Shown here: positions 1 to 44,977 of the stretch, piece after piece
Position numbering within the stretch: the stretch's first letter is position 1
Layout of the letters: every line of letters begins with the position of its first letter
Origin: an uncultured Solirubrobacterales bacterium
Lineage (GTDB): Bacteria > Actinomycetota > Thermoleophilia > Solirubrobacterales > 70-9
Length of the DNA: 64,000 nt
Direction of reading: 5' to 3'
NCBI GenBank assembly: GCA_963762205.1
Contig: CAVXJZ010000003.1
Coordinates: 491,371 to 555,370, forward strand
The notes under the pieces: generated by a model
Seen by the model: only the letters and a program-made list of their open reading frames with translations
What the model was told of the DNA's origin: nothing
The model's database searches: none
Program-made: the position numbers and the translations under genes

Positions 1-1247
1 AGCAGCCTGATCCGGTCCCGCGAGTCGAGCTCCCCGGCGAGCTCCTCGAAGAGGTGGGCGTAGTCGTCGTCGCGCCCGCCGACGACCAGCAGCTCCGCCC
101 TCGGGTGACGGGGGGCGATCAGGTCGAACGCCAGCGCCAGCGGAACCTGGGCCTTGCGCGGTTCGACCGTGCCCGGGCAGAAGAGGACATCGGCGTCTTC
201 CGGGATGCCGATCTCCCGCCGCACCGCGGTGCGGTCGACGGTGGCGCGCTCGACTTCGATCGGGCCCAGGTCGAGGCCGTAGGGGATCGTGTGGGTGCGC
301 TCCGCGCCGATCAGAGGCTGGTAGATCCTGCGGGTCGCCTCGGCGACGAAGACCGCGGCGTCGGCCCCGGCGAGGATGCCTTCCGCCCGGCGGCGCACCC
401 GCGGCTCGAAGTCGTCCCAGAGCACCGCCGGCTCGAAGCTCTCGTGGATCAGCCAGACGGCCGGGATCCCGAGCGCCTCGGCGACCTCGGCGCCCGGAAG
501 AGCATGCGCGGTCGCGGTGTTGATCAGGACCAGGTCGAACTCGCGAGGCGCCGCCCATGAGTGCAGCTCCTCGACGCGGCCGATGTATGAGCTGAGGTCC
601 CGGACCGGCGGCGAGCCCGAGATGTGGACGGGGATGCCGAGGTCTTCGAGCTGCCCGCGGACCGGGCCGTCGATCGCGCTCACGACCGTCGGCTCGATCG
701 TCTCCAGCTCGATCAGGTTCCGAAGCAGGTCGACCAGGAAGAGCTGAGCGCCCCCGAGGTCGAGTTGGTGCGTGCAGACGAGCGTTCGCGGGCCGTTCCC
801 GGCGACGGGCTCGGGCGTTCGCGGCGCGGGCGGAAGGAGAGCCCCCGGTGCCGGCACCGGGGGCTCCGGGCCGACGGTCACGGGCGTCTCCGGGAGCTCG
901 AAGCGCTCGCCGGCGACGCTGGTGGCGATCGTCCTCAGCATGCTCTCGCCGTCCGGCCCCGGCCAGTTCGCGAGGTTGGTCTTCATTTCGAAGCCCGACG
1001 CCATCCCGCGCGGATTGCCGGTCAGGTCGCTCACGTCGCGACGCGGCAGTCCGAGCCGGGCGCGCCCGAGCGGATGGTCTCCGAGCCAGAGCTCGACGGT
1101 CGCCGTCACGCCTTCGGGGAAGAGCATCCATCCATGCAGGGTGACGGCGCCGCGCTCCACCGCGGCGCCGGCCGGAGGCCAGTCCAGGCTGCCCGTAGGG
1201 GCGGGCCTGGCGGGCGCCGGCTCGAGGAAGGGCTCATCCGGCGTCAT
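1..1247 (-). CDS. Glycosyltransferase, GT-B fold / family 4-like (C-terminus runs off the left edge)
   Basis: The minus-strand frame is open from the ATG at 1247 to position 1; it is absent from the ORF track because it leaves the window. My own translation gives MTPDEPFLEPAPARP...TLHGWMLFPEG..., then ...EIGIPEDADVLFCPGTVEPRKAQVPLALAFDLI...AELLVVGGRDDDYAHLFEELAGEL. That is the typical C-terminal Rossmann half of GT4 (Glycos_transf_1-like) enzymes. Confidence 0.7.
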   Translation of the reverse strand, partial: MTPDEPFLEPAPARPAPTGSLDWPPAGAAVERGAVTLHGWMLFPEGVTATVELWLGDHPLGRARLGLPRRDVSDLTGNPRGMASGFEMKTNLANWPGPDGESMLRTIATSVAGERFELPETPVTVGPEPPVPAPGALLPPAPRTPEPVAGNGPRTLVCTHQLDLGGAQLFLVDLLRNLIELETIEPTVVSAIDGPVRGQLEDLGIPVHISGSPPVRDLSSYIGRVEELHSWAAPREFDLVLINTATAHALPGAEVAEALGIPAVWLIHESFEPAVLWDDFEPRVRRRAEGILAGADAAVFVAEATRRIYQPLIGAERTHTIPYGLDLGPIEVERATVDRTAVRREIGIPEDADVLFCPGTVEPRKAQVPLALAFDLIAPRHPRAELLVVGGRDDDYAHLFEELAGELDSRDRIRL

Positions 1248-1355
1248 TCCGCGGCTCCACAGCCGGCGGCTGGCCCGGAGTCGCCACTCGACCTTCCCGA
1301 AGCGGTGGTCCACGGCGCCAGGATAGCCGCGGGGCGCCGCCGCGCGCGGGGCCTC

Positions 1356-2537
1356 TCAACCGCGGCGGGCCGGGGCGCCGGAGCGTTCGATCCCGAGGAT
1401 CGAGATGAAGAAGCTGGCCAGCACGGTCTGCACGCCGAGGATCAGCATCGTGCCGGCGGGGATGACGAGGCGCAGCGTGTCCCGGTAGTCGAGCTCGGCG
1501 AAGCCGGTGTCGCCCCAGACGAAGAGCGCGACCACCGACATCGCGAGCCCGGCGACGATCAGGCCGAGCCCGATCAGGGCGCCCGCCTCGAGGCTGAGCC
1601 TGTCGTTGAGGTCCTCGAGCCACGGCCGGCCGGGCAGGAAGCCGGTGGCCATCGCGTAGATCCGGGCGAACGCCGCGAAGAGGATCGCCTGGTAGCCGAC
1701 GACGATCATCGCGCTCGCGTAGACCAGCGTGTGGACGTCGAAGCCGACCGCGAAGAGGCGCAGTTCTCCGGGCAGCAGGGCGATCATCGCGATCAGGCCG
1801 AGGACCATCAGCGCCAGGCCGGGGTAGAGGAAGAGCCAACGGGGGCTGAAGAGCAGCAGGAAGCGCAGATGTCGCCAGCCGTCGCGCCAGGTCCGCAGGT
1901 GCGGAGGCCGGGAGCGGAGGTCGGGCGAGAGCGTGGTCGGCACCTCGGAGATCGTCAGGTCGTTGAGCGTCGCCTTGACGACCATCTCGCTGGCGAGCTC
2001 CATGCCCGGGCTCTGCAGGTCGAGGGTGGGGAGGACGTCGCGGCGGAAGCCCCGCAGGCCGCAGTGGAAGTCGCCGATCGCGCTGGGGAAGAGAAGGCGG
2101 CCGATGAAGCTGAGCACGGGGTTGCCGAGGTAGCGGTGCAGGAAGGGCATCGCGCCCTCCTCGATCCCGCCCCGGAAGCGGTTGCCCATGACCAGGTCGT
2201 CGCCTGCCCGCAGCCGCTCGACGAAGGCCTCGATGTGGGCGAAGTCGTAACTGCCGTCGGCGTCGCCCATGATCACGTAGCGCCCCCGGGCGGCCTCGAA
2301 GCCGCCCAGCAGGGCGGCTCCGTAACCCCTCGCCGCCACGTCGACCACACGCGCTCCCATCCCGCGGGCGATCTCCCGCGAGCCGTCGGTGCTGCCGTTG
2401 TCGGCGATCACGATCTCGCCGTCGGCGCCGGCCCCGCGCAGCCCCTCCTGCGCCATCTCGACGCAGCGGCGGATCGACTCCGCCTCGTTCAGGCAGGGCA
2501 TCACGATCGAGACCTCGATGTCCCCCGCGCGGCTCAT
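1356..2537 (-). CDS. GT2 glycosyltransferase with C-terminal membrane domain (polyprenyl-phosphate hexose synthase-like, DPM1/GtrB/ArnC type)
   Basis: ORF 1356..3698 was trimmed to the internal ATG at 2537 (frame checked). The sequence MSRAGDIEVSIVMPCLNEAESI...ADNGSTDGS...MGDADGSYD is a GT2 catalytic core. About 4 hydrophobic helices follow (LFLYPGLALMVLGLIAMIALL, GALIGLGLIVAGLAMSVVALF, ...). The discarded upstream part is Arg/Pro-rich and overlaps the next gene. Confidence 0.8.
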   Translation of the reverse strand: MSRAGDIEVSIVMPCLNEAESIRRCVEMAQEGLRGAGADGEIVIADNGSTDGSREIARGMGARVVDVAARGYGAALLGGFEAARGRYVIMGDADGSYDFAHIEAFVERLRAGDDLVMGNRFRGGIEEGAMPFLHRYLGNPVLSFIGRLLFPSAIGDFHCGLRGFRRDVLPTLDLQSPGMELASEMVVKATLNDLTISEVPTTLSPDLRSRPPHLRTWRDGWRHLRFLLLFSPRWLFLYPGLALMVLGLIAMIALLPGELRLFAVGFDVHTLVYASAMIVVGYQAILFAAFARIYAMATGFLPGRPWLEDLNDRLSLEAGALIGLGLIVAGLAMSVVALFVWGDTGFAELDYRDTLRLVIPAGTMLILGVQTVLASFFISILGIERSGAPARRG

Positions 2538-4138
2538 CCGGCCGGCGCGGGCCCGCGTGGTCTCCAGGGGGCGCCGCGACCGAAGGCGAGCAGGTACAGG
2601 CGCGCCGCCGCGGCCAGCGCCACGGCGAGGATCGCCAGGGCGAGCGCGATCGCCAGCGGCTTGTGCCGGGGCGCCGCCGACCACCAGAAGGCGAGCGGGA
2701 TCCGCAGCCTCGGTTCGGAGAGGTTGACCGTGCGGCTGCGGCCCTCGAACGGCGCGTAGGTGACCTCGAGCCCGTCGCTCCCCAGCGGTTCGAGGATCTG
2801 GGAGGAGATCAGGCCCTCGGTCTGGACGAGCAGCGCCGAGAGCTCGGGTATCCAGCGGGTCGGGTCGTCGCCGTAGGGGATCCGCTCGCGGTCGACGCCG
2901 ATCCGGTCCTGGTAGATCGGCACCCCCGTCAGGGCGCGGACGACCTTCGTGTAGCGCGAGTAGGGGGCGGCGACGCCGATCACCTGGACGAGGATGCCGA
3001 GACAGGCGATGGCCGCCAGGACCTTCTGGCGGGTGACGGTCGACGCCCACCAGGCGATCGGGACCAGGAGCGCCCAGGCCGCCGGCACGATGTAGCGGGG
3101 CCCCCAGACCTCGTCGCCCCAGTAGATGGAGGCGCCGGAGAGCGCGGTCAGGCCGACGAAGAAGGCGAGCAACGCCAGGGTCAGGTTCGCGTCGGAGCGC
3201 CACATCCGCGGCAGGCCGAGCACGCCCAGCACAACCAGGGGGCTGTAGAGGATCAGGCCTTTCCCGGGGCTGAAGAGGAGGCCGAGGAAGTTGAGGGGCG
3301 CGGCGATCGTGAGCGGCTCTTCGCCGTAGCCGAATTCGGTCACCGAGCCGTACCGGGACCAGTTGTACCAGCCGATCACGCCGATCCAGAGCAGGACGGG
3401 AAGACAGGCGGCGGTCCCCAGGCGCAGCCTCTGGCGGCGGTCGAAGCTCATCAACGCAGGCCAGAGCAGGATCGCGATCGGCAGCACGGTGAACAGCGCG
3501 TAGGCCTTCGTCGCCGCGGCCGCGCCGGTGGCGAGGCCGGTCAGGCCGAAGCTGAGGACAGAGGGCGAGCGGCGCGCCCAGAATCCGACCGCGAAGGCGA
3601 CCATGGCCGCCGCCATGAAGGTCGTCTCCATGCCGATCTTCGAGTACGGCCAGGCGATGCTGGCGACGGTGAATAGGGCGGCGATCGTCGTCGCCCACCG
3701 CAGCGAGCGCCTGGCCTGGAAGACCAGGGCGAAGAGGGCGACGGCGGCGACGGCGGCCATGAAGGGGTTGAAGAACCAGAGGAAGGCGTACCCGTTCGGG
3801 TAGCCGCCGAAATGCCCGACGGTCTTGTCGGCCAGGTGGCCGGTGGCGAAGAAGGGGGCCTCGAGCAGTGGCTGCAGGATCCCCGTTCGCGAGTAGAGGT
3901 GGCCGCCCTTTCCGGGGATGTCGGCCTTCAGCTTCGGCAGTTCGGGGTTTTCCCGATCCCAGAACCGGCCTTCGAGCACGAGCCCCTCCGTGACCGCCCC
4001 CGTCTCCGGCTCATACCCCGTCAGAGGTTGGGTCGAGAACGAATAGAGGCCAAAGGCCATCACGAAGACGAGCGCTCCGGCCAGCACCGGCCGCGGCAAG
4101 TTGGCTGTGCGACGGCGCATTCTGGCTGATCCTTTCAA
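2534..4138 (-). CDS. Polytopic membrane glycosyltransferase, GT-C fold candidate (ArnT/PMT-like)
   Basis: A 534-aa ORF with at least 10 hydrophobic segments and an acidic first loop (GYEPETGAVTEG...DRENPE). ATGA stop/start overlap with the downstream GT2 gene at 2534-2537. The family cannot be assigned without an HMM search. The start may be the second ATG at 4120. Confidence 0.6.
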   Translation of the reverse strand: MKGSARMRRRTANLPRPVLAGALVFVMAFGLYSFSTQPLTGYEPETGAVTEGLVLEGRFWDRENPELPKLKADIPGKGGHLYSRTGILQPLLEAPFFATGHLADKTVGHFGGYPNGYAFLWFFNPFMAAVAAVALFALVFQARRSLRWATTIAALFTVASIAWPYSKIGMETTFMAAAMVAFAVGFWARRSPSVLSFGLTGLATGAAAATKAYALFTVLPIAILLWPALMSFDRRQRLRLGTAACLPVLLWIGVIGWYNWSRYGSVTEFGYGEEPLTIAAPLNFLGLLFSPGKGLILYSPLVVLGVLGLPRMWRSDANLTLALLAFFVGLTALSGASIYWGDEVWGPRYIVPAAWALLVPIAWWASTVTRQKVLAAIACLGILVQVIGVAAPYSRYTKVVRALTGVPIYQDRIGVDRERIPYGDDPTRWIPELSALLVQTEGLISSQILEPLGSDGLEVTYAPFEGRSRTVNLSEPRLRIPLAFWWSAAPRHKPLAIALALAILAVALAAAARLYLLAFGRGAPWRPRGPAPAG

Positions 4139-4161
4139 ACCGGTAGCGTGATGCCGAGAAC

Positions 4162-5253
4162 ATGGATCGTCTCCTGATCACGGGTGGCGCGGGCTTCGTG
4201 GGCTCCAACCTCGGCGTCGCGCTCGCCGCCAGGCACCCCGAGTGGGAGGTCCTTGCCCTCGACAACCTCTACCGCCGCGGCTCGGAGCTGAACCTGCCCC
4301 GGCTGCAGGACGCGGGGGTCGAGTTCGTCGAGGGCGACGTCCGCGAGCCCGCCGACCTGGAGCGGCTTCCCGCGATCTCCGCCCTGATCGAGTGCTCAGC
4401 CGAGCCCTCGGTGATGAGCGGGGTCGACGGCGACACCGGCTACCTCGTCCACACCAATCTCACCGGCGCCTACAACTGCCTCGAGCGCGCCCGCCGCGAC
4501 GGCGCGTTCATGGTCTTCCTCTCGACCAGCCGCGTCTACCCGGTCGAGCCGCAGGTCGGGCTCGAGCTCGAGGAGGCCGAGACACGCTTCGAGATCGCCG
4601 CCGAGCAGGCCGTGCCGGGCGCCTCTCCCGCCGGCATCTCGGAGCTCTTCCCGATCGCCGGCGCGCGCACGCTATACGGCGCCACCAAGCTCGCGGCCGA
4701 GCACCTGATCGAGGAGTACCGGGCGGGTCTCGGCGTCCCCGCGGTGATCGACCGCTGCGGGGTGATCGCCGGCCCCTGGCAGATGGGAAAGGTCGACCAG
4801 GGGGTATTCACCCACTGGATGCTCGCCCACCACTTCGGGAACCCACTCAGCTACATCGGCTTCGGCGGCAGGGGCAAGCAGGTCCGCGACCTGCTCCACG
4901 TCGATGACCTCGTCGACCTCGTCGAGCGCCAGCTGCTCGATCCCGACGGCTGGGACGGGCGCACGGTGAACGTCGGCGGCGGCCGCGAGGTCAGCCTCTC
5001 GCTGCTCGAGACGACCGCGATCTGCCGGAGGCTGACCGGAAACGAGGTGCCGATCGACCCGGTCGAGGAGACGCGGGCCGGAGACGTGCCGATATACCTT
5101 TCCGACTGCGGAAAGCTCTTCTCGTTGGACGACTGGCGTCCGCGGCGAAGCGCCGAGCAGGTGCTCGCGGACATCCACCAATGGATCGTGGCCGACGAGG
5201 CGAGGATCGCCGCAGCGCTCGATATCGAAACCCCGACCGGGGGAAGGGAGTAG
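4162..5253 (+). CDS. NAD-dependent epimerase/dehydratase (extended SDR, CDP-paratose 2-epimerase-like)
   Basis: [16 protein letters not shown] (GxxGxxG), [17 protein letters not shown] (YxxxK), [12 protein letters not shown]. 363 aa with consistent GC3-rich coding. Confidence 0.8.
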
Positions 5254-5260
5254 TCACAGA

Positions 5261-6334
5261 ATGCCGATCGCGATCATCACCGGCTCGGGGGGCCTGATCG
5301 GCTCCGAGGCGGTCGGGCACTTCATCGAGAAGGGCTTCGACGTCGTCGGCATCGAGAACGACATGAGGGCGAGCTTCTTCGGCCCCGAGGCCTCGACGGC
5401 CCACGTCACCGAGCGCCTCGTCGCGACCCATCCCGAGTTCCGCAACGAGGCGACCGACATCCGCGACGCGGACGCCGTCGAACGGATCTTCGGCGAGCAC
5501 GCCGGCCGGATCGAGCTGATCGTCCACGCCGCCGCGCAGCCGTCGCACGACTGGGCCGCCGGCGACCCGCAGACCGACTTCTCCGTCAACGCCAACGGCA
5601 CCCTGAACCTGCTCGAGGCGGCGCGCGCACACGCTCCCGACGCCCCCTTCATCTTCTGCTCGACCAACAAGGTCTACGGCGACACGCCCAACCGGCTGCC
5701 TCTCGAGGAGCAGGCGAAGCGACTGGAGCTCCCAGAGTCCCACCGCTACTTCAGGGGAATCGACACCTCGATGTCGATCGACTCCTCGACCCACTCGCTG
5801 TTCGGCGTCTCGAAGGTCGCGGCCGACCTCGCCGTGCAGGAGTACGGGCGCTATTTCGAGATGCCGACGGCCTGCTTCCGGGGCGGCTGCCTGACCGGGC
5901 CCCAGCACGCCGGGGCGAAGCTGCACGGCTTCCTCGCCTACCTGATGAAGTGCACCGCCACCGGGACGCCCTACACGGTGTTCGGCTACGCCGGCAAGCA
6001 GGTCCGCGACAACATCCACAGCGCCGACCTGATCGCCGCCTTCGAGGCCGTCCACGCGGCCCCGCGCCCGGCCGCCGTCTACAACATCGGCGGTGGCCGC
6101 CGCAGCAACTGCTCGATGCTGGAGGCGATCGAGATCTGCGAGCGGGTCGCGGGACGCGAGCTGAGCTGGGAGATGGGAGAGGAGCCGCGGATCGGCGACC
6201 ATCGCTGGTGGATCTCCGACCTGGCGCCGTTCGAAGCCGACTACCCGGACTGGAGCCCGCGCTACGGGATCGAGGAGATCCTCACCGAGATGTACGAGCA
6301 GAACGTCGAGCGCTGGTCGGCGACCCCCGCCTGA
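5261..6334 (+). CDS. NAD-dependent epimerase/dehydratase family protein (extended SDR; Phe at the expected catalytic Tyr position)
   Basis: [33 protein letters not shown]. The segment aligned to YxxxK reads [11 protein letters not shown], with TTC (Phe) at 5801-5803. 357 aa. Confidence 0.8.
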
Positions 6335-7108
6335 ATGAAGCTTTCGGTCGTCATCCCCGCCCAGAACGAGGAGGGCTCGGTCGCGCAGACGGTCAACGGG
6401 ATCGTCGAGGCGCTCGAGCGCGAGCAGGTCGACTACGAGGTGCTGGTCGTCGATGACGCCAGCGAGGATGCCACCGCCGAGGTGGTGGCCGGGATCGCCG
6501 CCGCGAACCCCCGCGTCCGCTGCCACCGCTCCCATTACGAACGCGGCTTCGGGATGGCGATCCGGGCCGGCCTCGACGAGTTCGAGGGCGACGCGGTGGT
6601 GATCGCGATGGCCGACGCCTCCGACGACCCCGAGGACCTGGTCCGCTACCAGCGGCTGCTGGAGGAGGGTTGGGACTGCGCCTTCGGCTCCCGTTTCGTG
6701 GCCGGGGCGAAGGTTCACGACTACCCGCGTCTGAAGCTGGCGATCAACCGGCTTGCGAACTGGTTCATCCGCGTCCTCTTCCGCCACGGCTACAACGACA
6801 CGACCAACGCCTTCAAGGGCTACCGGCGCGAGGTGATCGAGACGATCCAGCCGCTGCTCTCGAAGCACTTCAACCTGACCGTGGAGATGCCGCTGAAGGC
6901 GATCGTCAGGGGCCACAGCTATGCGGTGATCCCGACCTCGTGGACGAACCGGACCAGCGGCGTCCCGAAGTTGGCGATGAAGGAGATGGGCAGCCGCTAT
7001 CTGTTCATCGTTCTCTACGTATGGCTGGAGAGCACCCTGAGTCGCGGCGACTACCGCGTTCCCAAGGCGGAGCCGCGGACTACCCGGCGGGAAGGGGCCC
7101 CGCGCTAG
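6335..7108 (+). CDS. GT2 glycosyltransferase (soluble, DPM1/polyprenyl-phosphate sugar synthase-like)
   Basis: MKLSVVIPAQNEEGSV...VVDDASEDAT...AMADASDDPED (DxD-type)...NAFKGYRREV. The ATG directly abuts the TGA of the upstream SDR gene (tgaatg). Confidence 0.8.
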   Translation: MKLSVVIPAQNEEGSVAQTVNGIVEALEREQVDYEVLVVDDASEDATAEVVAGIAAANPRVRCHRSHYERGFGMAIRAGLDEFEGDAVVIAMADASDDPEDLVRYQRLLEEGWDCAFGSRFVAGAKVHDYPRLKLAINRLANWFIRVLFRHGYNDTTNAFKGYRREVIETIQPLLSKHFNLTVEMPLKAIVRGHSYAVIPTSWTNRTSGVPKLAMKEMGSRYLFIVLYVWLESTLSRGDYRVPKAEPRTTRREGAPR

Positions 7109-7752
7109 TCGTTGCGGCCGATCACGAGGAACTGCTTGCCGAGCAGGCGCCAGGCGATCGGGAGCTTCAGGTAGGTGCGCGTCAGCGTCGGCGAGGGGGG
7201 GAGGATCCCCCGGAACGAGTAGGGCAGGTATCGAGGGATGATCCGTTCAGGCTCGAAGCCCGCCGCGTAGAGGTGCTCGGCGATCGCCACATGGGTCAGC
7301 GCGACGTAGTGGTCGGCGCAGTCCCAGTACTCGTCGGAGCAGTAGCGGTAGTTGGGCCCCATGATCGCGATCCGGCCGCCCGGCTCCATCGCGCGCCGCA
7401 TCTTCTCCAGGAAGGCCGAGATCGCCTCCTGGTCGTAGAGGTGCTCGAGGAAGTTGGAGACGAAGACCCCGTCGAAGTGCCCCTCCGGTAGCTCAGCGTC
7501 CATGATCGGGGCGGTGATGACCTTGGTGTCGGGCCCGTGCGCGGCCTCCTCGTAGCTGACCGCGTCGACCGCCCACGTCTCCTTCGCAGGCACGGCCCCG
7601 ATGAACTCGCCCCGCCCGGCCGCCGGGTCGAGGACCTTCTGCGGTCGCCCCATCACCTCGTGGACATGGGGCCCGATCTCCTTCCAGACCGCGATTCGGC
7701 CCGCCTGGTCGATGTCACGAAATCGGTAGGTGTAGAGGCGCTCGAAGTTCAT
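7105..7752 (-). CDS. Class I SAM-dependent methyltransferase
   Basis: 215 aa with VLDPAAGRGEF (motif I-like), FDGVFVSNFLEHL and PGGRIAIMGPN. 4-nt convergent overlap with the GT2 stop. Confidence 0.7.
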   Translation of the reverse strand: MNFERLYTYRFRDIDQAGRIAVWKEIGPHVHEVMGRPQKVLDPAAGRGEFIGAVPAKETWAVDAVSYEEAAHGPDTKVITAPIMDAELPEGHFDGVFVSNFLEHLYDQEAISAFLEKMRRAMEPGGRIAIMGPNYRYCSDEYWDCADHYVALTHVAIAEHLYAAGFEPERIIPRYLPYSFRGILPPSPTLTRTYLKLPIAWRLLGKQFLVIGRND

Positions 7753-24138: not shown

Positions 24139-24191
24139 GCGGGGGCAGTCTAGTCCCACGCGGAATGACGCCCGACGCCGTGGTCCCGGCG

Positions 24192-30311: not shown

Positions 30312-30338
30312 TGCCGCAGGCTATCCGTTCGGCACCCG

Positions 30339-37234: not shown

Positions 37235-37286
37235 CGCTTGACCCTGCTATCGCATGGTCAAAGTCCGAAGCGGCCGGGCGAGCGCC

Positions 37287-37853: not shown

Positions 37854-37869
37854 CGCTTTCCTGCCTTTC

Positions 37870-38730
37870 TCAATCGCCTGCCGAGCCGGCCAGCCCGGCC
37901 CGCGTCATGTACTCCTCGAGCGCCTCGCGCCAGGGGCGCAGCGGCGTGAGGCCCAGGGAATCGGCCCGCGGGCGGGCGAGGACGCCGTTCAGCGGACGCG
38001 CGGCGCCGCCCTCCGGCACCGTGGTCTCCGTCGGCTCGATCGGCACCTCGATCCCGGCCAGCTCCATGATCGCCTGCGTGTACTCGAACCACGAGCACCC
38101 GCCCGCCGCCGTCAGATGCAGCACGCCCTCGGCCTCAGCCTCGACGGCCTCGATCAGCGCCCTCGCCAGGTCGACCGTGAAGGTCGGCTGCAGGCGCTGG
38201 TCGGCGACGACCGCGAGCGAGCCGTTCCTCTTCGCCGCGGCGATGATCCGCTGCACGAAGTTGCCGCCCTTGGAGGCGTTGCCCCGGGTCCCGTAGAGCC
38301 CGGCGGCGCGCACGACCAGCGGTCGCTCGCCGTAGGCCAGCGCCGCGTACTCGCCGGCCAGCTTCGAGAGCGCGTAGTAGGACCGGGGAGAGGGAGGGTG
38401 GTCCTCGGGATAGGGCTCGGGGCGCCCGCCGTCGAAGACGTAGTTGGTCGAGATGTGGACCATGGGCACGCCCCTGGACGCGAGGCTGCGGACCGCGCGG
38501 ACGTTGATCGCCCAGGCCTCCTCGACCGCGGTCTCGCATTCGTCGACGTTGTGGAAGGCGGCGCAGTTGAAGACGACGTCGGGCTCGACCTCGGCGAAGG
38601 CGCGCTCGACCGACGCCTCGTCGTCGATGTCGAGCGCCGCGTGGTCCAAGGGGAAGGCCGAGTCGGGGCCCAGGAGGTCGGCGAGGTCGTGGCCGAGCTG
38701 GCCCGCACCCCCCGTGATCAGCGCCCTCAC
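37870..38730 (-). CDS. RmlD-like NAD(P)-dependent 4-ketoreductase (second paralog)
   Basis: The GTG at 38730 (position obtained by counting from the stop; GTGA overlap with the upstream gene). VRALITGGAGQLG, FNCAAFHNVDECE, HISTNYVFDG, SYYALSKLAGE, VVRAAGLYG. 286 aa. Confidence 0.7.
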   Translation of the reverse strand: MRALITGGAGQLGHDLADLLGPDSAFPLDHAALDIDDEASVERAFAEVEPDVVFNCAAFHNVDECETAVEEAWAINVRAVRSLASRGVPMVHISTNYVFDGGRPEPYPEDHPPSPRSYYALSKLAGEYAALAYGERPLVVRAAGLYGTRGNASKGGNFVQRIIAAAKRNGSLAVVADQRLQPTFTVDLARALIEAVEAEAEGVLHLTAAGGCSWFEYTQAIMELAGIEVPIEPTETTVPEGGAARPLNGVLARPRADSLGLTPLRPWREALEEYMTRAGLAGSAGD

Positions 38731-39797
38731 AGGACCGCTGGGAAGGAATCCAGGGCCGGCCTGACCTCGCAGAGGAGTTCGAGCCAGCGGATGTTGTAGT
38801 GGTGGGGATCGGTGAGCTGGGCCGGGTCCTGGCCCTCGAGCTTGCCGAGCATCTCGGTCACCGACTCGAGCACCGAGCGACTGGGGACGATGCCGAGCGT
38901 GGTCGAGAGCTTCGCGTTGGCGCACTCGTAGTCGCGCGAGAGCTCCGGCGCCGGCGCCTCGTCGAGTTGCACCTCGCGGCCGGTCAGCTGCACGGAGCCG
39001 GCGACGATCATCGCCAGCTCGCGGATCTGGTAGTTCGAGTGGACGACGTTGAAGATCTCCCCGCGCACCTTCTCCGCCGGCGCCTCGTATGCGGCGATCA
39101 TCGCGTCGGCGCAGTCCTGGACGTCGACCAGCGGCCGCCACATCCAGCCGCCTCCGTGCAGGTTGAGCGCGCCCGAGAGCAGCGCGTCCTTGACGAAGGT
39201 GTTGACGACGAGGTCGAAGCGCATGCGCGGGCTCCAGCCATAGACCGTGCCGTTGCGCAGGATCGCCGGGCAGAGGCCGTCGTCGGCCATCTCGATCAGC
39301 TTCTCCTCGCCGTAGCGCTTCGAGGTCGCGTAGGCGGCGCGCGGCGCGACCGGCGCGTCCTCGGCGTGCATCCCGGCCGGCAGGCCGTCGTAGAGCGAGC
39401 AGGACGAGGCGAAGACGTAGCGCTCGATCCCCGCCGCGACGCACCTGCGCCCGAGCGTCTCGGTGGCGAGCGCGTTCATCTCCCAGTTGGCCTCGGGGTC
39501 GAACTCGGCGGTCGGGTCGTTGCTGAGGCCGGAGAGGTTGATCACACCGTCGATGCCGTCGAGGGCGCCGTCCGGGATGTCGCGGACGTCGGCCACGACG
39601 AGCTCGATCCGGTCGCGGAACGAGGCGAGAGGCTCCTCGCCGAAGTAGAGGCGGTCGAGGAGGCGGACGCGGTAGCCGCGGTCGAGGAGGCGCGGGACCA
39701 GGACGCAGCCGATGTAGCCGGCGCCGCCGGCGACGAGGATCGTCTGGTCGGGGTCCGGGGCGCTCGCGGAGAGGCCGTTGTGGCGGTGGCTGCTCAT
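38727..39797 (-). CDS. NAD-dependent epimerase/dehydratase (extended SDR)
   Basis: ORF 38727..39851 was trimmed to the ATG at 39797, downstream of the preceding gene's stop at 39832. ILVAGGAGYIGC, FASSCSLYG, AAYATSKRYGE, LRNGTVYG. Confidence 0.75.
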   Translation of the reverse strand: MSSHRHNGLSASAPDPDQTILVAGGAGYIGCVLVPRLLDRGYRVRLLDRLYFGEEPLASFRDRIELVVADVRDIPDGALDGIDGVINLSGLSNDPTAEFDPEANWEMNALATETLGRRCVAAGIERYVFASSCSLYDGLPAGMHAEDAPVAPRAAYATSKRYGEEKLIEMADDGLCPAILRNGTVYGWSPRMRFDLVVNTFVKDALLSGALNLHGGGWMWRPLVDVQDCADAMIAAYEAPAEKVRGEIFNVVHSNYQIRELAMIVAGSVQLTGREVQLDEAPAPELSRDYECANAKLSTTLGIVPSRSVLESVTEMLGKLEGQDPAQLTDPHHYNIRWLELLCEVRPALDSFPAVL

Positions 39798-39831
39798 GGT
39801 CGGGCGAGGATAGTGGCACCCGCGCGGCGCC

Positions 39832-41325
39832 TCAGTAGGCCCCCTCGCCACGCACGATCGCGCCCGGCGTGCGCACCAGGATCGCCAGGTCGGTGACGAT
39901 CGAGAGGTTGTCGAGGTAGTCGCGCTCCATCGCCAGGCGCTCCTCGAAGGTGAGGTCGCTGCGGCCGTAGACCTGCATCGGCCCGGTGATCCCGGGCTTG
40001 ACGCCGAGCCTGGTCCGCTGGCGCTGGTCGTAGAGGGCGACGACCGCCTCCTCCTCGGGCCGCGGGCCGACCAGCGACATCGATCCGCCGAGCACGTTGA
40101 TCAGCTGCGGCAGCTCGTCGAGGCTGGCGCGGCGCAGGGCACGGCCGGCGCGCGTCACCCGGGGGTCGTCGGGGATCTTGAAGGCCGGTTGGTCGAGCTG
40201 CTCGAGGTCGACCAGGTCGCCGAGGCGCTCCTCGGCGTCGGCGACCATGGTGCGGAACTTCAGCATCGTGAAGGGCCTGCCCTCCTTGCCCGCCCGCCGC
40301 TGCCGGAAGAGGACGGGCCGCCCCGAGTCGAGCAGGATCAGGACCGCGATCGCCGCCAGCAGCGGCGAGAGCAGGACCAGGAAGAGAGCGGATACGAACA
40401 CGTCCATGCCGCGCTTCATCGCGATCGTCGAGCGCGGCGGGTCGGAGAAGCGGAAGTCGAGCACAGGCAGCTCGGCGAGGCGGTTGAGCTCGATGCCCGG
40501 CCCCAGCAGCCCATAGTGCTGGGGCAGGAAGGTGAGCCCGAGGCCGGCGGCCTTGCACTCCTCGATCAGCCGCTCCGCGTCCGCCTCGCCCATCTCCTGC
40601 TCGGTGACGATCACCCGCTCGACGCCCTGCTCCCGCGCCACCCGGGCGATGTCGTCGACGCTGCCGAGCCGGGCCAGGCCTGCGGCCGTGCTGGTCTCGC
40701 CGGCCGGGGCCAGGTAGCCGGCCAGGCTCAGCCGCGCCTCCGGGTGGGTGGCGATCCGCCGCGCCACCCGGTCGGCGACGTCGGCCGGCCCGATCACGAG
40801 GCCGACGGAGACCTCGGTGAGCCGCTGCCAGGCGAAGCGCAGCGCGGCGCGCAGCAGGAAGCTGCCGGCGAAGACGAGGACCCCGACGAGCGCCGCTGTG
40901 CTCGGGGTGAGGGCTCCGGCCGGGGTGAGGACGAGCAGCCCGTCGAGGGCGAGCGTGCCGAGGGTGCTGGCCGAGACCAGCGCCGGCAGCTCGTCGAGAG
41001 TGCTGTGGCGGATCCGGCGGTGGTCGTTGTCGTAGAGGCCGTGGAGCTTGACGACCAGCACCCAGACGGGGCTGAACAGCACCGCCCAGAAGAGTGTCGC
41101 CACGTTTGCGCTCGAGGTCGCCACGGTCGCCACGCAGAGCGCCGCCACCATCGCCAGCCAGTCGCCGCTGGCGAGCAGGCGCCGCAGCTGGGCGCCACGC
41201 TGGCGGTAGTTCCGAGCGCCGGCGAGGCGCTCCGCGTCGCCGGGTCCCTTCGCATCCGGCGCGGTCCCGCCCCGCGCCGCCGGGCGGGACCGGGCGCCGC
41301 CGGTTTGCTTCGCCTTCTGCGTCAT
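39832..41325 (-). CDS. Polyprenyl-phosphate glycosyl-1-phosphate transferase (WbaP/CpsE-type initiating enzyme)
   Basis: The ATG at 41325 (ATGA overlap with the upstream gene). N-terminal TM block, a central Rossmann-like domain (VIGPADVADRVARRI...VERVIVTE), and the Bac_transf core: KRGMDVFVSALFLVLLSPLL, FRQRRAGKEGRPFTMLKFRTM, DELPQLINVLGGSMSLVGPRP. Confidence 0.85.
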   Translation of the reverse strand: MTQKAKQTGGARSRPAARGGTAPDAKGPGDAERLAGARNYRQRGAQLRRLLASGDWLAMVAALCVATVATSSANVATLFWAVLFSPVWVLVVKLHGLYDNDHRRIRHSTLDELPALVSASTLGTLALDGLLVLTPAGALTPSTAALVGVLVFAGSFLLRAALRFAWQRLTEVSVGLVIGPADVADRVARRIATHPEARLSLAGYLAPAGETSTAAGLARLGSVDDIARVAREQGVERVIVTEQEMGEADAERLIEECKAAGLGLTFLPQHYGLLGPGIELNRLAELPVLDFRFSDPPRSTIAMKRGMDVFVSALFLVLLSPLLAAIAVLILLDSGRPVLFRQRRAGKEGRPFTMLKFRTMVADAEERLGDLVDLEQLDQPAFKIPDDPRVTRAGRALRRASLDELPQLINVLGGSMSLVGPRPEEEAVVALYDQRQRTRLGVKPGITGPMQVYGRSDLTFEERLAMERDYLDNLSIVTDLAILVRTPGAIVRGEGAY

Positions 41326-43289
41326 TCGCCGCCCGCCTTCAGCTGCGGGGCCAGCGGGTTCATCTCCCGCGCCCTTTCGAGGTCGGCCCGCGCCGCGTCC
41401 GCGTCGCCGGCGGCCGCCTCGGCGCGCGAGCGCAGGGCGTAGAGCTCCCAGTTGCCGTCCTCGCGCTCGATCGCCTGGCTGAGCCGCTCGACCGCGAGGT
41501 CGTATTCGCCCTGTCGCTCGGCGATCAGGCCGAGCTGGAGGTAGGGCGAGGCCGCCCAGGGCTCGATCGAGCGGGCGGTGTCGGCGTGGTCGACGGCGCC
41601 GATCACGTCGCCGGCCGCCACCGCGCGCTGGCTCGCCCTGATCTCGCGCTCGACCAGCAGCGGGCCGATCAGGGCGATCGCGGCGATCCAGGCGAGCGCG
41701 ACGCCCCCCAGCGCGAGGCCGAAGCGCCTGTCGGGGCCGCCGGCGTCGGGGGGAGCCGGCGAGAGCTGCTCGCACCTGGCCGCGGCGAGGGCGCCGGCGG
41801 CGAGGCAGAAGACCGCTCCCAGGGCCGCGATCTCCCAGAACCAGTCGAAGGCGACGCCGACCGCGAAGACGAGCAGCGCCGCGAGCAGCGCCGCATGGGT
41901 CTCGCGCCGGCGGCGCGAGGCGCCGCGCCAGGCCGAGATCCCGACCCAGAGGATCGACCCGAGGAGGGCGAGGACGATCAGGCCTCCGATCGCGCCGAGC
42001 TCGGCGAAGGCCTCCAGGTAGAGCGAGTGGGCGTCGATCACGTCGAGGCTGATCGAGCGCGACTGGTCCCAGGAGAACTCGAAGGTGCCGGCCCCGTGCC
42101 CGAGCACCGGCCTTTCGCCGAAGGCATCGACCGCAACCCGCCAGAAGTCGTGCCGGCCGGCGCTGGAGAGGTCGGAGAAGTGCTGGGCCGGGTCCTCGGG
42201 GAATGCGATGTCCGAGCTCGAGAAGTCGTCCCAGGCGCGACCGCCGAAGACGAGCGCGGCGGCGACGGCGGCGACTCCGAGGGCGATCGCCGCCCCTCTG
42301 AGGACGGCGGGATCGCGGGAGAGCTCGACCGCCCTCCTCGTGCCCGGGCCGCCGCGGGTCTCGACCCGGCGCAGAAGAGCGAACAGCGCCAGGGAGACCG
42401 CGGTGCCGGCGAGGAGGATGAGCAGCACCGTCACCCCCTGGTCGACGGCCGCCTGCGATGAAACGCTGTCGGCGAGGCTGTGGTTTCGGGGGACCGCGAT
42501 CAGGGCCGGCAGGGCCCCGAGCGCGGCGACGACGAGGGTCGCCAGCATCCAGAGCCGGTCGCGGGAGAGGGCGACGATGCACAGGGCGCCGATCGCGAGC
42601 GCCAGCACGCCGCCCCTCGAGTAGGTGAAGTAGAGGGTGAGCATGACGGCAGGCATCGCGGCCACCGCGGCCCACCGCAGCGGCGTCCAGCGGGAGCCGC
42701 GGCTGAGCCAGAGCAGCATCGCCACGGCGACTCCGCACATCGCCCCGTTGGCGTTCCAGTAGCCGAGCGGGTAGCGCAATCGGGGCCCGTGCCCAAGGCC
42801 CTCGGTGAACTCGAGCACGTGGGGCAGAAGGCGGCTGCCGAGGGCGAGGAGGACGACGATCGTGACGCCTATTGCAATGCCTTCTGCGAAACGTTCGCGC
42901 CTCTCGTCGGTTTGGGCGATAAGGAAAGCGGCAAGGAAGAAGGCGAGATAGACGAGGACCCGATCCGCCTCGATCACGCTCAACTCGACCGAGCCCGACC
43001 AGAGGGACGACATTGCGGAGAGAAATGCCAGACAGCCGAACAGCCCGACAGCCGAGTAGAGCGGCCAGCCCAGGCGCGCACGGGCGGCGGCGCCAAGCAC
43101 GAGCAGGCCGACGACCACCAGCCACACCGCGAGGCCCGCAATGTGACGGTCCGTCACGTCGAATCCGCCACCGCTCAGGGCGAGGCCGACGATCAGCGCG
43201 ACTGGGGCGAGCAGCGCCGCCGTTTGCTCTAACCTTGCGCCCGATGACCTGGAATCACCGCCAGGCGGCCCTTGGCTGGGGCCGCTCAT
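41322..43289 (-). CDS. Wzy_C-family membrane protein (O-antigen ligase / O-oligosaccharyltransferase / polymerase-like) with C-terminal TPR-like repeats
   Basis: ORF 41322..43784 was trimmed to the ATG at 43289 (MSGPSQG...). About 12 TM segments with a large loop carrying ...DAHSLYLEAFAELGAIGG... (Wzy_C-type H-containing motif). The C-terminal helical repeats (SPYLQLGLIAERQGEYDLAVERLSQAIE...) look like TPR. The start is uncertain because it overlaps the divergent ORF. Confidence 0.7.
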   Translation of the reverse strand: MSGPSQGPPGGDSRSSGARLEQTAALLAPVALIVGLALSGGGFDVTDRHIAGLAVWLVVVGLLVLGAAARARLGWPLYSAVGLFGCLAFLSAMSSLWSGSVELSVIEADRVLVYLAFFLAAFLIAQTDERRERFAEGIAIGVTIVVLLALGSRLLPHVLEFTEGLGHGPRLRYPLGYWNANGAMCGVAVAMLLWLSRGSRWTPLRWAAVAAMPAVMLTLYFTYSRGGVLALAIGALCIVALSRDRLWMLATLVVAALGALPALIAVPRNHSLADSVSSQAAVDQGVTVLLILLAGTAVSLALFALLRRVETRGGPGTRRAVELSRDPAVLRGAAIALGVAAVAAALVFGGRAWDDFSSSDIAFPEDPAQHFSDLSSAGRHDFWRVAVDAFGERPVLGHGAGTFEFSWDQSRSISLDVIDAHSLYLEAFAELGAIGGLIVLALLGSILWVGISAWRGASRRRRETHAALLAALLVFAVGVAFDWFWEIAALGAVFCLAAGALAAARCEQLSPAPPDAGGPDRRFGLALGGVALAWIAAIALIGPLLVEREIRASQRAVAAGDVIGAVDHADTARSIEPWAASPYLQLGLIAERQGEYDLAVERLSQAIEREDGNWELYALRSRAEAAAGDADAARADLERAREMNPLAPQLKAGGE

Positions 43290-43813: not shown

Positions 43814-43816
43814 CCC

Positions 43817-44977
43817 GTGTCGCAGACGGGCAGGGGCCTTCGTCGGCGGGCTCGCGCGTGGAGCGCCGCCGCCGCGATCCTCGCGATCGCCGGCATCTCG
43901 GCCTCCCTGCCGCCTGTCGCCGGCGCGGTTCCCGGCAATTTCTGGGGCGTCGCCCCGCAGGCGGCCCCGAGCGGCGAACAGTTCCAGCGCCTGAAGCTGG
44001 GCGGTGTCGACAGCGTCCGGGTGCCGATCGAATGGGGCGCGGTGCAGGCCGAGGCCGGCGGCGGCTTCAACTGGAACGGCACCGACGAAATGGTCGCCGG
44101 CGCCGCCGCGGCGGGCATCGAAGTCTTCCCGTTCCTCACCGGCGCCCCCCGCTGGGCGGTGCCGCAGGCGGTCGTCAACAGGGCCGCCCACGCCCTGGCG
44201 CCGCGCAACCTGCCGGTAAGGAACGGCAAGCAGAAGCGTGGTTGGAAGGCCTTCCTGCACGAGGCGGTCGGGCGCTACGGCCCGCACGGGGCCTTCTGGG
44301 CGGCCAACCCGGCGACCCCCTACCGGCCGGTACGCATCTGGCAGCTCTGGAACGAGCCCAACTTCAAATACTTCGTCGCCCGCCCCAACCCGGCCGAGTA
44401 CGGGAAGCTGATCAAGCTCTCCTACCCGGTGATCAAGAAGCTCGATCGCGGCGCCCGGATCGTCCTCGGCGGGCTCTTCGCCGCTCCCAGGGAAGCCGAA
44501 TACAGGCGCAGGCCGCCGCTCGCCTACTTCGCCACCGACTTCCTCAGGCAGCTCTACAAGAGGACACGGGGGATCAAGCGCAAGTTCGACGGTGTCGCCC
44601 TGCACCCCTACACCTCCGAATTCGACGAAATCGCCGGCCACGTCGAGGCGGTGCGCCGGGTGCTCAAGGCGAGCCACGACCCCGGCGCGGCCCTCTGGAT
44701 AACCGAGCTCGGCTGGAGCGCCGGCAGGCCGCAGAAGAGCAACGGCTTCAACGATTTCGAGAAGGGCCCGCAGGGCCAGGCGCGCCAGCTCAAGGGGGCC
44801 TTCCGCCTGCTCAAGAAGAACCAGCGCAGGTGGCGCCTCAGGCAGGTCTTCTGGTTCTCGGTCGACGACCGACCGGGCGCCTGTAACTTCTGCGACGGCT
44901 CTGGCCTTTTCGCGCCGGGCTTCGTGCCGCGACCGTCCTGGCGGGCGTACGTCAGGTTCGCCGGCGGCAGGGCATAA
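43817..44977 (+). CDS. Secreted glycoside hydrolase, clan GH-A (TIM-barrel) candidate
   Basis: GTG start 3 nt after the previous stop. Signal-like N-terminus (RRRARAWSAAAAILAIAG). IWQLWNEPN (acid/base NEP) and LWITELGWS (nucleophile-type E). The family cannot be assigned without a search. Confidence 0.55.
   Translation: MSQTGRGLRRRARAWSAAAAILAIAGISASLPPVAGAVPGNFWGVAPQAAPSGEQFQRLKLGGVDSVRVPIEWGAVQAEAGGGFNWNGTDEMVAGAAAAGIEVFPFLTGAPRWAVPQAVVNRAAHALAPRNLPVRNGKQKRGWKAFLHEAVGRYGPHGAFWAANPATPYRPVRIWQLWNEPNFKYFVARPNPAEYGKLIKLSYPVIKKLDRGARIVLGGLFAAPREAEYRRRPPLAYFATDFLRQLYKRTRGIKRKFDGVALHPYTSEFDEIAGHVEAVRRVLKASHDPGAALWITELGWSAGRPQKSNGFNDFEKGPQGQARQLKGAFRLLKKNQRRWRLRQVFWFSVDDRPGACNFCDGSGLFAPGFVPRPSWRAYVRFAGGRA

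Follow-up and report, generated by a model that had tools for sequence, protein, structure and literature searches.

The combination of a WbaP-type primer, an ATP-binding cassette (ABC) exporter, and a transferase carrying a Wzy_C domain and tetratricopeptide repeats (TPR) has been reviewed for the S-layer glycan (slg) systems of Geobacillus and Paenibacillus, and both WsfB and PglL carry a C-terminal TPR (PMC2943079). In the model organisms for the rhamnose cell wall polysaccharides (Rha-CWPS), the primer and LytR-CpsA-Psr (LCP) genes lie elsewhere in the genome (PMC9574508), and the DUF2304 proteins GacJ and Rv3632 activate GacI and PpgS, respectively (10.1101/180810). A literature search found no paper on envelope or wall glycans of the Solirubrobacterales or of their class, Thermoleophilia. 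Here we describe a glycan locus at positions 1 to 44,977 of a 64,000-nucleotide stretch of DNA from an uncultured Solirubrobacterales bacterium (contig CAVXJZ010000003.1; hereafter the window). It probably directs the ABC-dependent synthesis of a rhamnose-containing envelope glycan that is further decorated outside the membrane. With somewhat less confidence, we also favor the view that these 45 kb form the right-hand part of the host's main locus for a surface or wall heteroglycan, lying at a fixed site and consisting of a conserved core with strain-variable cassettes.

A preliminary description of the window had called such a locus uncharacterized in organisms of this kind. Our literature search, which found no paper on wall glycans of the class, agrees with this; close functional analogs are nevertheless well characterized in other Gram-positive bacteria, namely the Rha-CWPS and, within the Actinomycetota, the mycobacterial galactan exporter and the PpgS/Rv3632 pair.

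Extent and conserved core

The G+C content of the window is ~70%, and raw lists of its open reading frames (ORFs) consist mostly of spurious frames; genes were instead called from the GC content of codon positions and then scanned with Pfam and NCBIfam at curated cutoffs. Nearly all genes called between positions 1 and 44,977 are glycan-related, as the preliminary description had stated, and the right border of the region is real: the Lhr helicase starts at 45124, and the DNA from 45 to 64 kb is all housekeeping. The left border is merely the edge of the window, and one gene within the region, lhgO, falls outside the statement. The gene at the left edge is:

3-1313, minus strand: GT4 glycosyltransferase (GT; Glyco_transf_4, 51.9 bits)

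Its 3' end is cut and it has no stop codon inside the window, and the locus therefore continues leftward. The genes on which our interpretation chiefly depends are as follows:

27292-28149, minus strand: wzm (ABC2_membrane)
28146-29420, minus strand: wzt (ABC_tran plus Wzt_C, the latter 58.8 bits against a cutoff of 30.4, residues 278-407)
39832-41325, minus strand: polyprenyl-phosphate glycosyl-1-phosphate transferase (PGT) of the large WbaP/WcaJ type (Bac_transf, 211 bits)
41322-43289, minus strand: membrane protein of the O-antigen-ligase family (Wzy_C, 57.5 bits against a cutoff of 31.7) with C-terminal TPR
32236-33315, plus strand: rmlA, long form (TIGR01208 rmlA_long, 484 bits against a cutoff of 320)
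33315-34166, plus strand: rmlD (RmlD_sub_bind, 309 bits)
34163-35146, plus strand: rmlB (domain scan)
37287-37853, minus strand: rmlC (200 bits)
18911-19894, plus strand: GDP-mannose 4,6-dehydratase, gmd (GDP_Man_Dehyd, 426 bits)
25368-27001, minus strand: double-GT2 protein of the conserved core (domain scan; in 42 of 80 related loci)
30336-31280, plus strand: GT2 of the conserved core (domain scan), convergent with the next
31219-32184, minus strand: GT2 of the conserved core (domain scan), convergent with the preceding

The positions and identities that had been given for the rml genes, gmd, the WbaP-like primer, wzt-wzm, and the Wzy_C and TPR protein were all confirmed by Pfam or NCBIfam. 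The start of the 30336-31280 gene was moved from 30177 on the basis of homolog coverage and N-terminal sequence. The wzm and wzt genes overlap, and the best match to Wzt in the Protein Data Bank (PDB) is full-length Aquifex Wzt, an O-antigen exporter (8DKU/7K2T), over residues 41-376 (E 3.5e-58), which takes in part of the carbohydrate-binding domain; the Wzt_C domain is also found in the related locus L082 (the loci of relatives are given L-numbers here). The competing affiliation named in the preliminary description, with teichoic/teichuronic-acid or arabinogalactan enzymes, is not borne out: Wzt scored 164 bits against a cutoff of 538 for the teichoic-acid exporter family and 173 against 400 for the galactan exporter family. 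No PNPT (WecA-type) domain was found in the window, the primer there being a Bac_transf protein. The PGT passes TIGR03025 (351 bits against 296) but fails both the WbaP-specific (253 against 403) and the WcaJ-specific (283 against 411) models, and we consequently assign it no sugar. Overall, the parts list of an ABC-transporter-dependent pathway of the slg type, as originally proposed, is present: a primer, the rml genes, Wzm/Wzt with a carbohydrate-binding domain, a fusion of GT and methyltransferase domains, and a Wzy_C protein with TPR.

A scan with Wzt, using one genome per species, yielded 575 relatives, of which the best 80, at 49-79% identity, were examined. All 80 are metagenome-assembled genomes (MAGs) labeled Solirubrobacterales, Thermoleophilia, or more broadly Actinomycetota or Actinomycetes, in agreement with the actinobacterial host predicted earlier. 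All proteins of the locus were compared by tblastn with the 80 loci, each covering 10 kb on either side of wzt. The wzm gene is found in 75 of the 80, rmlA, rmlD, and rmlB in 37-45 (with 80-86% identity), rmlC in 37, the double-GT2 gene in 42, the convergent GT2 genes in 36 (30336-31280) and 32 (31219-32184), the PGT in 17 within 10 kb of wzt, and a pair of nucleotide-sugar epimerase genes in 9-17. The core also takes in the gene of the 550-amino-acid membrane protein at 9781-11433 (36 loci), the small GT2 gene at 6335-7108 (25), and the methyltransferase gene at 7105-7752 (14). Other parts are variable: gmd, a gene for a GT8-GT4-methyltransferase fusion, and an AlgX-like gene occur in two to four loci; a module of CE4, flippase-like, DUF2304, GT2, GNAT, and 768-amino-acid membrane protein genes occurs in none to three; and the block of lhgO, rmlC, rmlD2, and a further epimerase gene was seen only in L001. 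In the closed 2.77-Mb genome of L081 the right flank is syntenic, running from an RTX-repeat protein gene through pcmt, crp, lhr, a glycoside-hydrolase-like gene, the Wzy_C/TPR gene, the PGT gene, a GT2 gene, and rmlCBDA to two further GT2 genes. The clustering is not due to chance, since dozens of related genomes have this set of genes around wzt. Judged by these gene orders, this is a fixed chromosomal glycan locus with a variable center, like O-antigen or capsule loci.

Toxin-antitoxin or Abi-type insertions lie between the rml and GT genes at positions 14455-15099 of L081 and 13772-17857 of L082 (PIN/FitA; AbiEii/AbiEi; AAA ATPase/DUF234); such insertions fit a recombination-prone, possibly phage-exposed locus. 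The closed chromosomes of related MAGs (L007, L013, L014, L015, L031, L032, and L046) are 2.5-2.9 Mb, and a glycan locus of at least 45 kb amounts to ~1.7% of a genome of that size.

Sugar nucleotides and cytoplasmic enzymes

The gene set for dTDP-L-rhamnose is complete, RmlA, RmlB, RmlC, and RmlD all being present; RmlA and a second RmlD pass NCBIfam equivalog cutoffs. The additional nucleotide-sugar genes, three of which encode orphan short-chain dehydrogenases/reductases (SDRs), are:

37870-38730, minus strand: second RmlD paralog, rmlD2 (TIGR01214, 240 bits against a cutoff of 224)
4162-5253, plus strand: SDR nucleotide-sugar epimerase, CDP-tyvelose-2-epimerase-like (Epimerase, 117 bits)
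5261-6334, plus strand: paralog of the preceding, also an SDR nucleotide-sugar epimerase and CDP-tyvelose-2-epimerase-like (Epimerase, 127 bits)
38727-39797, minus strand: SDR epimerase (best PDB matches 6WJB and 6WJ9, an epimerase/dehydratase family protein)

RmlD2 is 37% identical to RmlD, and its gene adjoins rmlC. RmlD-like paralogs can make dTDP-6-deoxy-L-talose, and RmlD2 might possibly do so here. The two paralogous epimerases have 1ORR and 9RL0 as their best PDB matches and are 81-84% identical to their counterparts in the 9-17 related loci that have them; the protein behind 6WJB and 6WJ9 we take to be the UDP-GlcNAc 4-epimerase PelX. The gmd product is 90-93% identical in L001 and L002. 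A GDP-derived 6-deoxyhexose had been predicted as a constituent of the polymer: gmd is clear, but none of the three orphan SDRs resembles Rmd or Fcl, their best solved relatives being CDP-tyvelose 2-epimerase and the protein of the 6WJB type, and the prediction stays plausible, not proven.

We count 12-13 GT-A and GT-B domains in the locus, in line with the earlier figure of at least 11 soluble GT domains. Apart from those already listed and from the synthase-like GT2s described below, they are encoded by:

17694-18824, minus strand: GT2 (85.5 bits)
35148-36029, minus strand: GT2, candidate adaptor (first) transferase (domain scan; adjoins the primer gene in relatives)
19915-23291, minus strand: tri-domain gene, GT8-like plus GT4 plus S-adenosylmethionine (SAM)-dependent methyltransferase, split in the window into 21876-23291 and 20012-21922

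The gene order Wzy_C-PGT-GT2 is seen in L081, L027, and L036. The tri-domain gene is a single ORF in relatives, of 1126 amino acids in L002 and 1134 in L001. Its GT8-like part, the 471-amino-acid protein of 21876-23291, has no match in the domain databases, but an AlphaFold-type model (predicted local distance difference test, pLDDT, 88.5) matches the structures of LgtC, glycogenin, and LARGE1 (E ~1e-6), and by its modeled fold the protein is a GT8-type retaining GT-A enzyme domain. The domain comprises ~450 amino acids and lacks a Pfam model; it has at least 840 homologs, many of them N-terminal to GT4 in proteins of ~800 amino acids, and some are labeled FkbM family methyltransferase by NCBI. 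The complete tri-domain enzyme is a candidate for both extending and capping the chain.

Four SAM-methyltransferase genes or domains are present, as had been claimed, one fused to the GT domains just described and one adjoining wzt; Pfam confirmed all four, together with the CE4 deacetylase (below). The separate methyltransferase genes and the other accessory genes are:

7105-7752, minus strand: SAM methyltransferase (Methyltransf_11/25/23; 14 loci, 86% identity)
23332-24159, minus strand: SAM methyltransferase (Methyltransf_23, 46 bits)
29451-30311, minus strand: SAM methyltransferase adjoining wzt (domain scan; 10 loci)
24192-25358, minus strand: SGNH/AlgX-like protein (ALGX, 29.8 bits against a cutoff of 26.5)
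14479-15387, plus strand: weakly GNAT-like protein (Acetyltransf_9, 24.8 bits against a cutoff of 25)
27004-27213, minus strand: small coiled-coil protein of 69 amino acids, conserved upstream of the double-GT2 gene in 16 loci

One of these methyltransferases may cap the chain. The AlgX/J-like assignment just passes its cutoff, but the protein has no signal peptide and is hence cytoplasmic, unlike the periplasmic AlgX and AlgJ; the GNAT assignment falls just short. With these two marginal domain matches as its basis, the earlier suggestion that the polymer is acylated is weakly founded. The coiled-coil protein is 69-88 amino acids long in at least 16 relatives, and L082 has a 99-amino-acid neighbor in the same position; a role in setting chain length or in assembly is conceivable for so small a protein. 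It was also considered as a frameshifted N-terminus of the double GT2, an explanation that we rejected since relatives have a separate coiled-coil gene followed by an intact 544-amino-acid GT.

A proposed assembly stage outside the membrane

About one-third of the locus appears to serve an extracytoplasmic stage involving GT-C enzymes, and this was missing from the model in the preliminary description, which left five genes with polytopic products, the DUF2304 gene, and the flippase-like gene undescribed. The genes concerned are:

9781-11433, plus strand: GT-C-fold glycosyltransferase, 550 amino acids (no Pfam or NCBIfam match; fold from an AlphaFold2, AF2, model)
7754-9658, minus strand: polytopic membrane protein, 634 amino acids, probably a GT-C of the PMT_2/ArnT type (PMT_2, 25.2 bits against 26.1; more than 10 transmembrane, TM, helices)
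2534-4099, minus strand: polytopic membrane protein, 521 amino acids, candidate lipid-linked-sugar transferase (~9 TM helices; no Pfam match)
15391-17697, plus strand: polytopic membrane protein, 768 amino acids (~10 TM helices and a C-terminal soluble domain of ~290 amino acids; no Pfam or NCBIfam match)
1356-2537, minus strand: GT2 with ~4-5 C-terminal TM helices, polyprenyl-phosphate-sugar-synthase-like (Glycos_transf_2, 97.5 bits)
6335-7108, plus strand: small ArnC/PgfS/AglJ-like GT2 of the conserved core (Glycos_transf_2, 82 bits; 25 of 80 loci, 82% identity)
11503-12324, plus strand: CE4 deacetylase with DUF3473 (Polysacc_deac_1, 74 bits; DUF3473, 75 bits)
12333-13322, plus strand: flippase-like membrane protein (LPG_synthase_TM/TIGR00374, 131 bits)
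13319-13708, plus strand: DUF2304 small membrane protein (34.7 bits against a cutoff of 25.5)
13705-14469, plus strand: PpgS-like GT2 (GT2, 83 bits; PpgS the best NCBIfam match, 105 bits against a cutoff of 370)

The AF2 model of the 9781-11433 product, built on 42 homologs, has a pLDDT of 88 and a predicted template-modeling score of 0.87, and its top 16 Foldseek matches are all GT-C proteins (ArnT, EmbA/B, PglB, STT3, AglB, Pmt). On the strength of the model, the protein is a GT-C-fold enzyme of a clade-specific family for which Pfam and NCBIfam have no model. The family has at least 1290 homologs, all annotated as hypothetical, and shows an invariant Asp36 shortly after TM1; in the Solirubrobacterales relatives the gene usually adjoins wzm, and it is present in 36 of the 80 loci. 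PDB sequence searches with this protein and with the 471-amino-acid GT8-like protein gave nothing useful.

The other polytopic proteins are less well placed. The 2534-4099 product weakly matches the LA_3751/3752 putative GT family (28 bits). Profile comparison found no relationship between the 9781-11433 family and the products of 2534-4099, 7754-9658, or 15391-17697, and an all-against-all BLASTP of the locus proteins revealed no paralogy among the membrane proteins.

For the 1356-2537 GT2, NCBIfam ranks AglJ, Dol-P-hexose transferase, and PpgS highest, none of them reaching its cutoff; across the synthase-like GT2s the top ranks go to these families and to ArnC and PgfS, always below the equivalog cutoffs, which places the proteins at the family level only. 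The DUF2304 gene overlaps the start of the adjacent GT2 gene, so that the two are translationally coupled as a pair of the GacJ/GacI or Rv3632/PpgS type, and the CE4 and flippase-like genes sit beside this pair. The CE4 protein scores 171 bits against a cutoff of 276 with TIGR03006 and, having no signal peptide, is cytoplasmic. No GtrA or Wzx/MOP flippase domain was found among the called genes of the window.

The Wzy_C protein and the possible fate of the polymer

The TPR of the Wzy_C protein occupies residues 559-651, the only part that was matched in a PDB sequence search. Its Wzy_C+TPR homologs are 655-674 amino acids long, which supports the start at 43289. There are 2437 homologs, and nearly all of the best 120 are 64-81% identical, one reaching 95%; where named, these 120 are all from Solirubrobacterales or Thermoleophilia. 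The protein is thus more conserved than most GTs of the locus and ranks among its best conserved products, and such high identity fits a conserved acceptor and reducing end. By analogy with slg systems, the Wzy_C protein would be the ligase, and the WbaP-type enzyme the primer, of the ABC-exported chain. We put the odds at about even that the Wzy_C protein acts as terminal ligase on this very chain; that the acceptor is a protein is a tentative idea that we consider doubtful.

The same genes could also be divided between two chains, in the manner of the enterococcal polysaccharide antigen (EPA) or of the lactococcal rhamnan and polysaccharide pellicle (rhamnan-PSP). Priming of a rhamnan by a WecA/TagO-type enzyme and its anchoring to peptidoglycan by an LCP enzyme would then depend on genes elsewhere, and Wzm/Wzt would export it; the PGT and the Wzy_C protein, the latter as a polymerase, would make a second, separately flipped polymer or oligosaccharide, which one of the GT-C enzymes would graft onto the first outside the membrane. 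The window indeed contains no WecA-type or LCP gene, and it holds several GT-C-type proteins and a flippase-like protein. In EPA the decoration arm uses the primer EpaR, a flippase, and a homolog of O-antigen ligases beside an ABC-exported rhamnan (10.1101/2024.06.26.600781), and lactococci and streptococci keep the primer and lcp genes outside the cluster, GT-C enzymes joining both polymers (PMC9574508). However, neither a Wzx/MOP flippase nor a Wzz/PCP co-polymerase was detected among the called window genes, and the PGT and Wzy_C genes belong to the conserved core by the rml genes, whereas decoration arms are normally the variable part; moreover, slg systems show that a WbaP-type primer is able to feed an ABC exporter (PMC2943079). 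We consider assembly from two chains unlikely.

Beside the Wzy_C gene, where the locus ends on the right, lies:

43817-44977, plus strand: secreted glycoside-hydrolase-like protein with a signal peptide (Glyco_hydro_cc, 22.6 bits against a cutoff of 21)

The gene is conserved in this position and is syntenic in L081, where the product is 56% identical. A secreted enzyme of this kind could trim or release a polymer that is not covalently anchored at all, a secreted or loosely attached exopolysaccharide (EPS) or capsule, and many EPS loci have such a protein at their edge. The subfamily model that the PGT passes, TIGR03025, is itself named exopolysaccharide biosynthesis polyprenyl glycosylphosphotransferase, and the CE4, Wzy_C, and TPR parts show sub-threshold similarity to families of XrtA/PEP-CTERM EPS systems. 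Against this, a Wzt carbohydrate-binding domain and several methyltransferases are typical of chain-capped, lipid-linked, and subsequently ligated glycans (PMC2943079), the high conservation of the Wzy_C ligase-family protein argues for a defined acceptor, and no exosortase, PEP-CTERM component, or OPX/PCP export protein is encoded in the window. A free polysaccharide is, in our judgment, improbable.

Single-nucleotide indels

Comparing the long ORFs of relatives with the window, followed by alignments and translations of the frames, located at least five 1-nucleotide indels relative to close relatives, at ~20075, ~21947, ~26795, ~45863, and ~46290. The first two split the tri-domain GT gene, and the third, a deletion, breaks the double-GT2 gene, which is an intact ORF of 544 amino acids in L002. 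The last two compensate each other within lhr, such that residues ~226-357 of Lhr are read in another frame.

Taken at face value, three indels that break two large GT genes intact in the closest relatives would mean that the locus is decaying in this strain and that its glycan is truncated, altered, or no longer made. The housekeeping gene lhr, in the same window, is also affected, which makes assembly error, and not selection acting on the glycan genes, the likelier cause; all other genes keep a strong signal in GC content at the third codon position and full-length matches. We therefore gave little weight to reading the region as a pseudogene cluster and consider genuine decay highly improbable. 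The indels are probably errors from an unpolished long-read assembly.

Other genes of the window

The non-glycan gene within the locus and the secreted protein nearest to it are:

36056-37234, plus strand: L-2-hydroxyglutarate oxidase, LhgO equivalog (NF008726, 483 bits against a cutoff of 299)
51187-53094, minus strand: secreted RTX calcium-binding-repeat protein of 635 amino acids (11 repeat stretches, 24% Gly, 13.5% Asp, N-terminal signal peptide)

The lhgO gene is embedded between rmlB and its adjoining GT2 gene on one side and rmlC on the other, and its product is 74% identical to the L001 copy; it is not a glycan gene and appears unrelated to glycan synthesis. The FAD oxidoreductase that it encodes was considered, together with the neighboring SDR, as a DprE1/DprE2-like epimerase pair, which was rejected given its equivalog assignment.

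The RTX-repeat gene, 6 kb beyond the right end of the locus, is syntenic in L081 (43% identity). Its product is a candidate surface or S-layer-like protein and a possible target of glycosylation, although nothing ties it to the locus. The housekeeping genes in the right-hand 19 kb include those for Crp, PCMT, GroES/GroEL, an acyl-CoA dehydrogenase, and a cyclophilin. Two further ORFs there, 61244-62902 (plus strand, 552 amino acids) and 56413-57564 (minus strand, 383 amino acids), have no Pfam match, and the GC content of the second codon position in the former is unusually high, at 0.64.

A working model

The following order of events would account for the gene content. First, the WbaP-type PGT would prime polyprenyl phosphate with a sugar-1-phosphate. 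Cytoplasmic GT2, GT4, and GT8-like enzymes would then extend a rhamnose-containing chain, for which the RmlABCD genes could supply dTDP-L-rhamnose, and a GDP-mannose-derived sugar may be used as well. Third, a methyltransferase, for which the tri-domain enzyme and the methyltransferase adjoining wzt are the candidates, would cap the non-reducing end; fourth, the carbohydrate-binding domain found on Wzt would recognize the finished chain, and Wzm/Wzt would export it. In a fifth step, outside the membrane, GT-C enzymes, of which one has a modeled fold, would add side-chain sugars from polyprenyl-phosphate-sugars. These donors may be made by the three ArnC/PpgS/AglJ-like GT2s, one of which is grouped with the DUF2304 activator, the CE4 deacetylase, and the flippase-like protein; the CE4 and flippase-like genes make a de-N-acetylated intermediate probable for one of the routes. 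Finally, the Wzy_C+TPR protein would take the polymer off its lipid carrier and attach it to an acceptor, which might be a surface protein, as slg systems have, or some other component of the wall.

Several points weigh against this model and against the locus being the main heteroglycan locus of its host. Every reaction is read from sequence, and no sugar specificity could be assigned to the PGT or to any of the GTs. Domain scans of the 64-kb window revealed no acceptor gene, LCP ligase, or S-layer homology (SLH) protein, and no 4-reductase of the Rmd, Fcl, or Tld type for the Gmd product was identified among its genes. Of the four large polytopic proteins, only one could be placed significantly in a family or fold; frameshifts interrupt two of the key GT genes as sequenced here, and the window does not reach the left end of the locus. 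In addition, WbaP-type primers and Wzy_C proteins are usually parts of Wzx/Wzy pathways; their coupling to an ABC exporter here is drawn from the slg analogy.

In its most far-reaching form, the model would make the locus the source of the principal secondary wall polymer of Solirubrobacterales, by a hybrid route undocumented in Actinomycetota: a WbaP-primed, methyl-capped rhamnan would be exported by a Wzm/Wzt with carbohydrate-binding domain, elaborated by a clade-specific GT-C family, and attached by the Wzy_C+TPR protein to an acceptor other than lipopolysaccharide (LPS), for example a surface protein such as the RTX-repeat neighbor. We offer this as speculation and think it distinctly unlikely in full; if true, it would imply general protein O-glycosylation, or a Wzy_C-dependent wall ligation that replaces or adds to LCP chemistry.

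Thermoleophilia, and Solirubrobacterales especially, are abundant soil actinobacteria that are almost uncultured, and the locus provides a conserved genetic handle on what would be their main surface glycan, which probably helps determine desiccation tolerance, phage adsorption, and antigenic diversity among strains. It also brings to light two sizeable families that domain databases have missed, the GT-C family (at least 1290 members) and the GT8-like domain (at least 840). No new principle is involved: for every step there is a characterized counterpart in Bacillota, Proteobacteria, or mycobacteria, and the building blocks and their overall logic have precedents. The novelty lies in the host clade, in the way the parts are combined, and in the two protein families without database models.

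Comparison with known systems

Four groups of systems resemble the locus. Mycobacterial arabinogalactan (Wzm/Wzt Rv3783/Rv3781; the PpgS-Rv3632-Rv3779 galactosamine branch; the Emb/Aft GT-C enzymes) comes from the same phylum. As proposed here, it is made in lipid-linked form with the use of dTDP-rhamnose, crosses the membrane through an ABC-2 transporter, and is elaborated outside by GT-C enzymes from polyprenyl-phosphate-sugars; a PpgS-like GT2 with a DUF2304 partner is common to both, and EmbA/B rank high in the fold search with the 9781-11433 product. However, Wzt reaches 173 bits where the galactan-exporter cutoff is 400, the galactofuranosyl and arabinosyl machinery (orthologs of Glf, GlfT, DprE, and Aft/Emb) is lacking here, the primer is of the WbaP rather than the WecA type, and a Wzy_C protein is present.

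Capped ABC-dependent O-antigen pathways (Escherichia coli O8/O9a and the Pseudomonas aeruginosa common polysaccharide antigen) share Wzm/Wzt with a C-terminal carbohydrate-binding domain, multi-domain polymerizing GTs, and a protein of the Wzy_C family (the ligase WaaL); their chain capping of the methyl type may have its counterpart in the methyltransferases here. The P. aeruginosa antigen also has gmd with GT4 enzymes and methyltransferases. WecA initiates these pathways, whose end point is lipid A-core in an outer membrane, whereas we saw no LPS genes here and the host phylum is regarded as monoderm; nor was a WbdD-type kinase or coiled-coil ruler found, the 69-amino-acid coiled-coil protein by the double GT2 being the only one of its kind.

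The Rha-CWPS of streptococci, lactococci, and enterococci (the group A carbohydrate GAC, Rgp, rhamnan-PSP, and EPA) have in common with the locus the rml genes, GT2/GT4 rhamnosyltransferases, and an ABC exporter; the parts for adding side chains outside the membrane, which are a GT-A polyprenyl-phosphate-sugar synthase (GacI) and its DUF2304 activator (GacJ), a flippase, for which this locus has a flippase-like protein, and a GT-C enzyme; and the division into a conserved backbone part and a variable decoration part. EPA has, in addition, a primer and a homolog of O-antigen ligases. They differ in being WecA/TagO-type primed and joined to peptidoglycan by LCP enzymes through a phosphodiester, with neither function encoded in this window, and in the present locus it is the conserved core that includes the PGT and Wzy_C genes.

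The slg clusters of Geobacillus stearothermophilus NRS 2004/3a and Paenibacillus alvei share the WbaP-type primer (WsaP/WsfP), Wzm/Wzt, rmlABCD, several soluble GTs of the rhamnosyltransferase type, a fusion of GT and O-methyltransferase (WsaE, thought to cap the chain), and a Wzy_C transferase, which in WsfB has a C-terminal TPR as here. The fusion is built differently, as GT8-like plus GT4 plus a C-terminal methyltransferase here and as an N-terminal methyltransferase plus two GT domains in WsaE. The present locus is about three times larger, belongs to a high-GC actinobacterial host rather than to low-GC Bacillota, and has three or four GT-C-type proteins and three polyprenyl-phosphate-sugar-synthase-like GT2s that slg clusters lack; it has no adjacent S-layer gene, and the window has no SLH domain. 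We do not count it as an established slg family member, since no S-layer or target protein is evident in the window. By analogy, the locus would work like an slg cluster combined with the multi-component side-chain systems of the Rha-CWPS.

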